Below, one piece after another: positions 53,608-57,059 of a stretch of 64,000 bases of DNA (position 1 is its first letter; each line of letters opens with the position of its first letter). Under the pieces are notes generated by a model, which saw only the letters and a list, made by a program, of their open reading frames with translations, had not been told where the DNA came from and made no database searches. The DNA lies in NCBI RefSeq assembly GCF_003790525.1, contig NZ_CP033635.1. One strand, given 5' to 3'. The position numbers and the translations under genes were made by a program. This stretch comes from Escherichia coli (GTDB lineage: Bacteria > Pseudomonadota > Gammaproteobacteria > Enterobacterales > Enterobacteriaceae).

Positions 53608-55287
<1,680 letters not shown>

Positions 55288-55540
55288 TTATCGGGCTTTT
55301 CTTTAAGGGTAGTCATTCGCTCCGCCTGGTGGGCGACAAAGCGTGCGGTGGATCACGTTTATTAACCTGCCAAAAAATATAACGCACTAATATCAATGGA
55401 ATTTATAAAAATACGGATTTCGTGTTGTTTTTCATTTTCAGAACATTCAATCCTGCTCTCGCCGCAATCATGATATGCCATTCCTGATCTGGGTAATAGG
55501 CACAGGCTATCTTATTGATAGTTTATATTCATGTAATTGA

Positions 55541-55554
55541 TTGATTCCTATCAA
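55541..55554. promoter_or_regulatory. FNR binding site upstream of yhjA
   Basis: TTGATTCCTATCAA, a perfect TTGAT-N4-ATCAA box about 108 bp upstream of the yhjA ATG; yhjA is known to be FNR/OxyR-activated. Confidence 0.6.
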
Positions 55555-55661
55555 AAAGCGTATTTCCCTGTTTTTTATGATGGCTTTGTCTCGCAGAGAC
55601 GTTTGCAGCATTCTGGAAAATTTTCTGGGTCACAATAACTCACCACCGTGAGGGAAGAATA

Positions 55662-57059
55662 ATGAAAATGGTCTCACGTATTACCGCGATCGGCCTGGCT
55701 GGCGTCGCGATTTGCTATTTAGGGTTATCTGGTTATGTGTGGTACCACGATAATAAACGCAGTAAGCAGGCCGATGTTCAGGCATCTGCTGTCAGTGAAA
55801 ATAATCAGGTTTTAGGTTTTCTTCGCGAAAAAGGATGCGACTATTGCCATACGCCTTCGGCAGAATTACCCGCCTATTATTATATTCCTGGCGCGAAACA
55901 GTTGATGGATTACGACATTAAGCTTGGATATAAATCTTTTAACCTCGAGGCCGTGCGTGCGGCTCTGCTGGCTGATAAACCCGTTTCGCAAAGCGATCTG
56001 AATAAGATTGAATGGGTAATGCAGTATGAAACCATGCCACCAACGCGTTATACCGCGCTACACTGGGCGGGTAAGGTGAGTGATGAAGAGCGGGCGGAAA
56101 TACTCGCCTGGATTGCAAAACAACGCGCAGAATATTACGCCAGTAATGATACTGCTCCGGAGCATCGCAATGAACCGGTGCAGCCCATCCCGCAAAAACT
56201 GCCTACCGATGCGCAAAAAGTGGCGTTGGGCTTTGCGCTGTATCACGATCCCCGTTTATCGGCTGATAGCACCATTTCATGCGCTCATTGCCATGCGTTG
56301 AATGCGGGGGGCGTCGATGGCAGAAAAACATCGATTGGTGTTGGTGGCGCAGTTGGGCCGATTAACGCGCCGACGGTATTTAACTCAGTATTTAACGTTG
56401 AGCAGTTCTGGGATGGTCGTGCGGCAACATTGCAGGATCAGGCGGGTGGACCGCCGTTGAACCCGATTGAAATGGCGTCGAAATCCTGGGACGAAATTAT
56501 TGCTAAGCTGGAAAAAGATCCGCAGCTTAAAGCGCAGTTCCTCGAAGTCTATCCGCAAGGTTTCAGCGGTGAAAATATTACTGATGCCATTGCTGAATTT
56601 GAAAAAACATTAATTACGCCGGATTCCCCATTTGATAAATGGTTGCGTGGAGATGAGAATGCGCTGACGGCACAACAGAAAAAAGGCTATCAATTATTTA
56701 AAGATAATAAATGTGCAACTTGTCATGGTGGTATTATTCTCGGCGGACGTTCCTTCGAACCGTTGGGGCTGAAAAAAGACTTTAACTTTGGTGAAATTAC
56801 GGCGGCGGATATTGGTCGTATGAATGTGACTAAAGAAGAGCGCGATAAATTGCGTCAGAAAGTACCCGGTTTACGTAACGTTGCACTAACGGCACCGTAC
56901 TTCCATCGCGGTGATGTGCCGACGCTGGACGGGGCGGTGAAACTGATGTTGCGCTATCAGGTAGGCAAAGAGCTGCCGCAGGAGGATGTGGATGATATCG
57001 TAGCTTTCCTGCACAGTCTGAACGGGGTTTACACGCCGTATATGCAGGATAAACAATAA
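55662..57059 (+). CDS. yhjA: tri-haem cytochrome c peroxidase
   Basis: 465-aa ORF; three CxxCH haem motifs (CDYCH, CAHCH, CATCH); N-terminal TM anchor. Confidence 0.94.
   Translation: MKMVSRITAIGLAGVAICYLGLSGYVWYHDNKRSKQADVQASAVSENNQVLGFLREKGCDYCHTPSAELPAYYYIPGAKQLMDYDIKLGYKSFNLEAVRAALLADKPVSQSDLNKIEWVMQYETMPPTRYTALHWAGKVSDEERAEILAWIAKQRAEYYASNDTAPEHRNEPVQPIPQKLPTDAQKVALGFALYHDPRLSADSTISCAHCHALNAGGVDGRKTSIGVGGAVGPINAPTVFNSVFNVEQFWDGRAATLQDQAGGPPLNPIEMASKSWDEIIAKLEKDPQLKAQFLEVYPQGFSGENITDAIAEFEKTLITPDSPFDKWLRGDENALTAQQKKGYQLFKDNKCATCHGGIILGGRSFEPLGLKKDFNFGEITAADIGRMNVTKEERDKLRQKVPGLRNVALTAPYFHRGDVPTLDGAVKLMLRYQVGKELPQEDVDDIVAFLHSLNGVYTPYMQDKQ

Follow-up and report, generated by a model that had tools for sequence, protein, structure and literature searches.

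The window, the whole 64,000-nucleotide stretch of Escherichia coli chromosome analysed here, contains a 404-bp intergenic region (55258-55661) between two divergent genes, treF and ccp (yhjA). The original prediction had named both genes and their divergent arrangement, and the open reading frame list, family matches and the RefSeq annotation all agree with it. The ccp product matches di-haem peroxidase and MauG families, with scores that fall under the curated family cut-offs. Downstream of ccp lies gadA. The features of the locus are as follows.

53608-55257, minus strand: treF, from the open reading frame list and a match to NCBIfam TreF (1216 bits).
55496-55532, plus strand: OxyR-type motif ATAGGCACAGGCTATCTTATTGATAGTTTATATTCAT, read as ATAG-N7-CTAT-N7-ATAG-N7-CTAT with two mismatches, both in the fourth tetrad.
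55541-55554, no strand assigned: FNR box TTGATTCCTATCAA, a perfect TTGAT-N4-ATCAA, centred at 55547.5, about -40.5 from the predicted start.
55576-55581, plus strand: -10-like hexamer TATGAT, read from the sequence, a 5/6 match to TATAAT, separated from the FNR box by 21 bp (55555-55575).
55588, plus strand: predicted ccp transcription start, placed 7 nt after the -10 hexamer.
55588-55600, plus strand: inverted repeat GTCTC-GCA-GAGAC at the predicted mRNA 5' end, beginning exactly at the predicted ccp +1.
55639-55652, plus strand: inverted repeat CTCAC-CACC-GTGAG; its 3' arm runs into the ccp Shine-Dalgarno sequence, GAGGG at 55650-55654.
55662-57059, plus strand: ccp (yhjA), the regulated gene, 465 aa, from the open reading frame list and the RefSeq entry 'ccp, cytochrome c peroxidase'.

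The palindrome at 55541-55554 is, as originally described, a perfect TTGAT-N4-ATCAA, and it is the sole one within the window. Chance alone would give 0.16 perfect boxes per window, and at least one box arose in 15 of 100 shuffles; the box count by itself is not significant at whole-window scale. Scaled from the shuffle figure, about 0.001 would be expected in the 404-bp intergenic region. The A of the ccp ATG lies 108 bp beyond the last base of the box and 114.5 bp beyond its centre, and the earlier figure of about 108 bp upstream of the yhjA start is right if counted from the box's 3' end. CRP sites and FNR sites are told apart by their half-sites, GTGA/TCAC for CRP and TTGAT for FNR. CRP was rejected as the binding protein, the half-site here being TTGAT and not GTGA/TCAC.

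A second motif stands directly upstream. The OxyR-type motif ends 8 bp before the FNR box, at about -92 to -56 from the predicted ccp start. It is the only match in the window at three or fewer mismatches, where 0.10 would be expected by chance.

At class II FNR-activated promoters the FNR site typically lies at about -41.5. With the ccp start predicted from the -10 hexamer at about 55588, the box centre would fall at about -40.5, a spacing that corresponds to class II FNR geometry. The ccp promoter has no recognisable -35 element, and a generic sigma-70 promoter scan of the intergenic region called no plus-strand promoter. We did not count the missing call against the assignment, because an activator-dependent promoter without a -35 is expected to escape such a scan. 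The inverted repeat that begins at the predicted +1 occurs in the same place in Escherichia sp., Citrobacter, Trabulsiella and Hafnia with altered sequence (GTCT/AGAC, GTCC/GGAC, GTCCT/AGGAC, GGCCAA/TTGGCC), and is absent in Providencia. These changes in the stem look compensatory, and the repeat could either form a hairpin that stabilises the 5' end of the mRNA or serve as a palindromic operator.

We asked how far this arrangement extends. A Ccp protein scan of species-representative genomes found 41 loci, 36 of them enterobacterial. At 34 of the 36 enterobacterial loci, the 450 bp upstream of the ccp match contain both an FNR-like box with no more than 2 mismatches and an OxyR-like motif with no more than 4. 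Among the more distant relatives recovered by the Ccp scan, no convincing module was found in Saezia, the Lachnospiraceae MAGs or Chloracidobacterium, nor in an uncultured-bacterium contig with less than 450 bp of upstream sequence. For an alignment of promoters, 23 of these loci were combined with the window to give 24. In 22 of the 23 other promoters the offset from the start of the OxyR motif to the FNR box is exactly 45 bp; the promoters come from Escherichia, Citrobacter, Pluralibacter, Providencia, Trabulsiella, Entomohabitans, Hafnia, Enterobacillus, Buttiauxella, Yersinia and one Enterobacteriaceae MAG. The exception is Providencia burhodogranariea, in which the OxyR motif lies 56 bp upstream of the box.

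The -10 element keeps its place as well. A -10-like nAnnAT hexamer follows the box by 21-23 bp in 22 of the 23 other promoters, which would put the box centre at -40.5 to -42.5; Entomohabitans copy 1 has a poorer -10 fit, at 26 bp. Mean pairwise identity was taken from an ungapped alignment, anchored on the box, of 15 representative promoters from 11 genera. Identity is 89% at the ten FNR half-site positions versus 34% in the N4 spacer between them. It reaches 93% in the first three OxyR tetrads; positions outside the motifs, from the OxyR start through to the FNR end, show 43%, and the 50 nt that follow 30%. An OxyR-FNR-(-10) module with the same base-pair spacing across several enterobacterial families goes modestly beyond the original prediction.

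The same spacing bears on where ccp transcription begins. The original prediction would fail with a start that leaves the box outside class I and class II positions, and the sequence points elsewhere: TATGAT lies 21 bp downstream, the box centre falls at about -40.5 and the geometry recurs in 22 of the 23 other promoters. A related alternative is that FNR does bind, and that the true start differs from the predicted one, so that FNR would repress ccp or would work from a class I site. It draws on a start site that is itself only predicted and on the generic scan that called no plus-strand promoter. Yet no alternative -10 lies at a conserved distance, in contrast to the 21-23 bp nAnnAT spacing, and the hairpin begins at the predicted +1 in several genera. 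The curated literature also has FNR as an activator of yhjA under anaerobiosis, with OxyR as a further activator (PMC4207228). We regard a different start of this kind as very improbable.

The intergenic region 55258-55661 is matched at 95% identity or more in 5422 of 5426 complete E. coli genomes. The box was followed with exact 28-nt words from a 34-nt query (55531-55564), each of which necessarily includes the whole FNR box, and it is exact in at least 5391 of the 5426. Four sampled E. coli variants carry changes at non-motif positions only. Over 231 aligned bp (55440-55670, which take in the OxyR motif and reach the ATG) the window differs from MG1655 at one base, which is a spacer base between the FNR box and the -10. 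The window carries the standard, known yhjA/ccp control region in another E. coli strain.

One E. coli strain has a disrupted box. In fS54a (NZ_CM176577.1; L006 1540-2760) the IS5-like element ISKpn26 has split the FNR box and duplicated CTAT. About 1.2 kb now lies between the upstream part, with the OxyR motif and the TTGAT half-site, and the ATCAA half-site with the ccp promoter. This is the one case of an insertion in the FNR box among the matches listed.

Since the two genes are divergent, the box could instead serve treF, or serve it besides ccp. treF was predicted as a high-confidence FNR target by DISTILLER, and ChIP-qPCR was positive there; the intergenic region is shared, so treF and yhjA are indistinguishable in that assay (PMC2690998). 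Myers et al. 2013 list treF among genes that respond to O2 in the hns/stpA mutant alone (Table S11, value 0.498; PMC3688515). Against this, 290 bp separate the treF ATG from the centre of the box, and the sole minus-strand promoter-like site (55316-55287) stands about 230 bp away from the box and about 267 bp from its centre; both distances are too great for class I or class II activation. Synteny points the same way. Only Escherichia and Citrobacter have treF next to ccp on its upstream side, and the module is kept upstream of ccp in nine genera without an adjacent treF. Because the module persists where treF is not adjacent, it belongs to ccp and not to treF. A treF-directed role was rejected on distance and synteny, and we consider it very unlikely.

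Regulation of ccp by both proteins has been published. The original prediction held that yhjA is induced anaerobically through FNR and by peroxide through OxyR and that this was already known, and papers citing Partridge, Poole and Green 2007 support it. Dual control is attributed to that study (Microbiology 153:1499) in PMC10301912, PMC4207228 and PMC2690998, the first of which describes 'double regulation by OxyR ... and by ... FNR'. ccp is also listed in the OxyR regulon (PMC8115020 Table 1; PMC4207228). PMC8115020 and PMC12051229 describe Ccp as OxyR-induced under hypoxia, with the respiratory chain thereby using H2O2 as terminal oxidant. Compared with the K-12 yhjA (ccp) promoter of Partridge, Poole and Green 2007, the window has the same locus, for which the citing papers report the same dual FNR/OxyR control, and nothing of substance differs; it is another E. 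coli strain. The FNR/OxyR regulation at ccp is ordinary and already known.

Published measurements of FNR occupancy in vivo conflict. Lemmens et al. 2009 applied FNR ChIP-qPCR at yhjA and treF and reported in vivo binding (PMC2690998). FNR ChIP-seq, which the original prediction had proposed as a check, came out the other way: Table S6 of Myers et al. 2013 lists the exact site TTGATAGGAATCAA for yhjA/treF (coordinate 3667319, MG1655 U00096.2; PatSer 14.16) as a predicted site at which anaerobic cultures in glucose minimal medium gave no FNR ChIP-seq peak (PMC3688515). In the same study the site is overlapped by H-NS and IHF ChIP-chip enrichment. The anaerobic H-NS region (3661953-3667384) spans 5.4 kb over gadX-gadA-ccp and ends 65 bp past the site, and the IHF region (3667035-3667586) covers it (PMC3688515). 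The hns/stpA-mutant peak table has no entry named yhjA or treF. In Table S12 the expression of yhjA differs between aerobically and anaerobically grown wild type, with a listed ratio of 0.50 (PMC3688515).

These data lend something to the view that the consensus match arose by chance or is 'silent', being unused by FNR in vivo, and that anaerobic control of ccp is indirect. Shuffling yields at least one box per 64 kb in 15 of 100 cases, the site has no ChIP-seq peak and lies under H-NS and IHF signal, and at least five other perfect TTGAT-N4-ATCAA boxes in Table S6 also lack a peak (PMC3688515). The ccp box is listed among the silent FNR sites of Myers et al. and shares with them the H-NS and IHF overlap. 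Unlike the silent sites that lie within genes, it stands in a deeply conserved promoter, at a class II distance, and FNR dependence of that promoter has been published. Against an unused site, the half-sites of the ccp box keep a fixed distance from the -10 and the OxyR motif in at least four families even as the spacers drift. ChIP-qPCR was positive (PMC2690998), FNR regulation is published (PMC4207228, PMC10301912), and the ChIP-seq was done without H2O2, a condition in which the promoter would be off. We give an unused site hardly any credence.

We read the missing ChIP-seq peak as a condition-dependent false negative and not as a refutation, because the cultures lacked H2O2, where the promoter is expected to be off, and because Myers et al. 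argue that nucleoid proteins mask functional FNR sites (PMC3688515). The disagreement between the two occupancy measurements is nonetheless real. A perfect consensus box with published function that is scored as unoccupied is a caution against taking ChIP-seq under a single condition as a refutation, and this too goes modestly beyond the original prediction.

Taken as a whole, the palindrome is very probably the FNR operator of the ccp (yhjA) promoter, acting by class II activation at -40.5 with OxyR directly upstream. The motifs, their geometry and their conservation come from the present analysis, and the dependence on FNR and OxyR comes from the literature. The start site, the polymerase contacts and the help given by OxyR are what we infer. 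Without oxygen, dimeric [4Fe-4S]-FNR would bind TTGAT-N4-ATCAA about 40.5 bp upstream of the start. Bound FNR would overlap the position of the missing -35 and recruit RNA polymerase as a class II activator, and OxyR at about -92 to -56 would add a requirement for H2O2. The result would be an AND gate, in which ccp is made only with oxygen absent and H2O2 present. Such expression suits an enzyme for which H2O2 is a respiratory electron acceptor. The control region would restrict a quinol-dependent periplasmic peroxidase to anoxic, peroxide-containing niches, and this has little import beyond annotation.

A further possibility concerns the order of binding. In anoxic cells the FNR box may stay empty until oxidised OxyR has bound alongside it, with OxyR either clearing H-NS and IHF or loading FNR cooperatively. 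If so, the logic of no O2 and H2O2 would be set by access of FNR to its site and not by two independent contacts with RNA polymerase. It would explain the rigid 45-bp offset from Escherichia to Yersinia, and it would reconcile a ChIP-seq result that is negative without H2O2 with the genetics. We hold this proposal to be doubtful.

The class II arrangement has well-known counterparts. nirB and narG are class II promoters, with FNR at -41.5 and NarL/NarP upstream. By analogy, the ccp promoter appears to be built like these two, with the FNR box over the -35 region and a second, signal-specific regulator directly upstream. As at nirB/narG-type promoters, the nucleoid proteins IHF and H-NS lie over the ccp region. 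In contrast to nirB and narG, the co-regulator at ccp is OxyR, a LysR-type tetramer that senses H2O2, and not a nitrate response regulator. The arrangement also departs from that of typical OxyR promoters: there OxyR abuts the -35, whereas at ccp FNR sits between OxyR and the polymerase.

Entomohabitans teleogrylli carries two ccp homologues (L029 and L030). The OxyR-FNR module precedes one of them, its box degenerate (TTGACGGTGGTCAA); the second is without a box at the usual distance and has a weak OxyR-like match only.

An Rfam scan of 55200-55720 returned no RNA family at E up to 1. The inverted repeat CTCAC-CACC-GTGAG ahead of the ccp start codon is kept in Escherichia, Citrobacter and Pluralibacter, with one U-G change in Citrobacter sp. 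Awk 4. Where it overlaps the Shine-Dalgarno sequence, it might limit the initiation of ccp translation.
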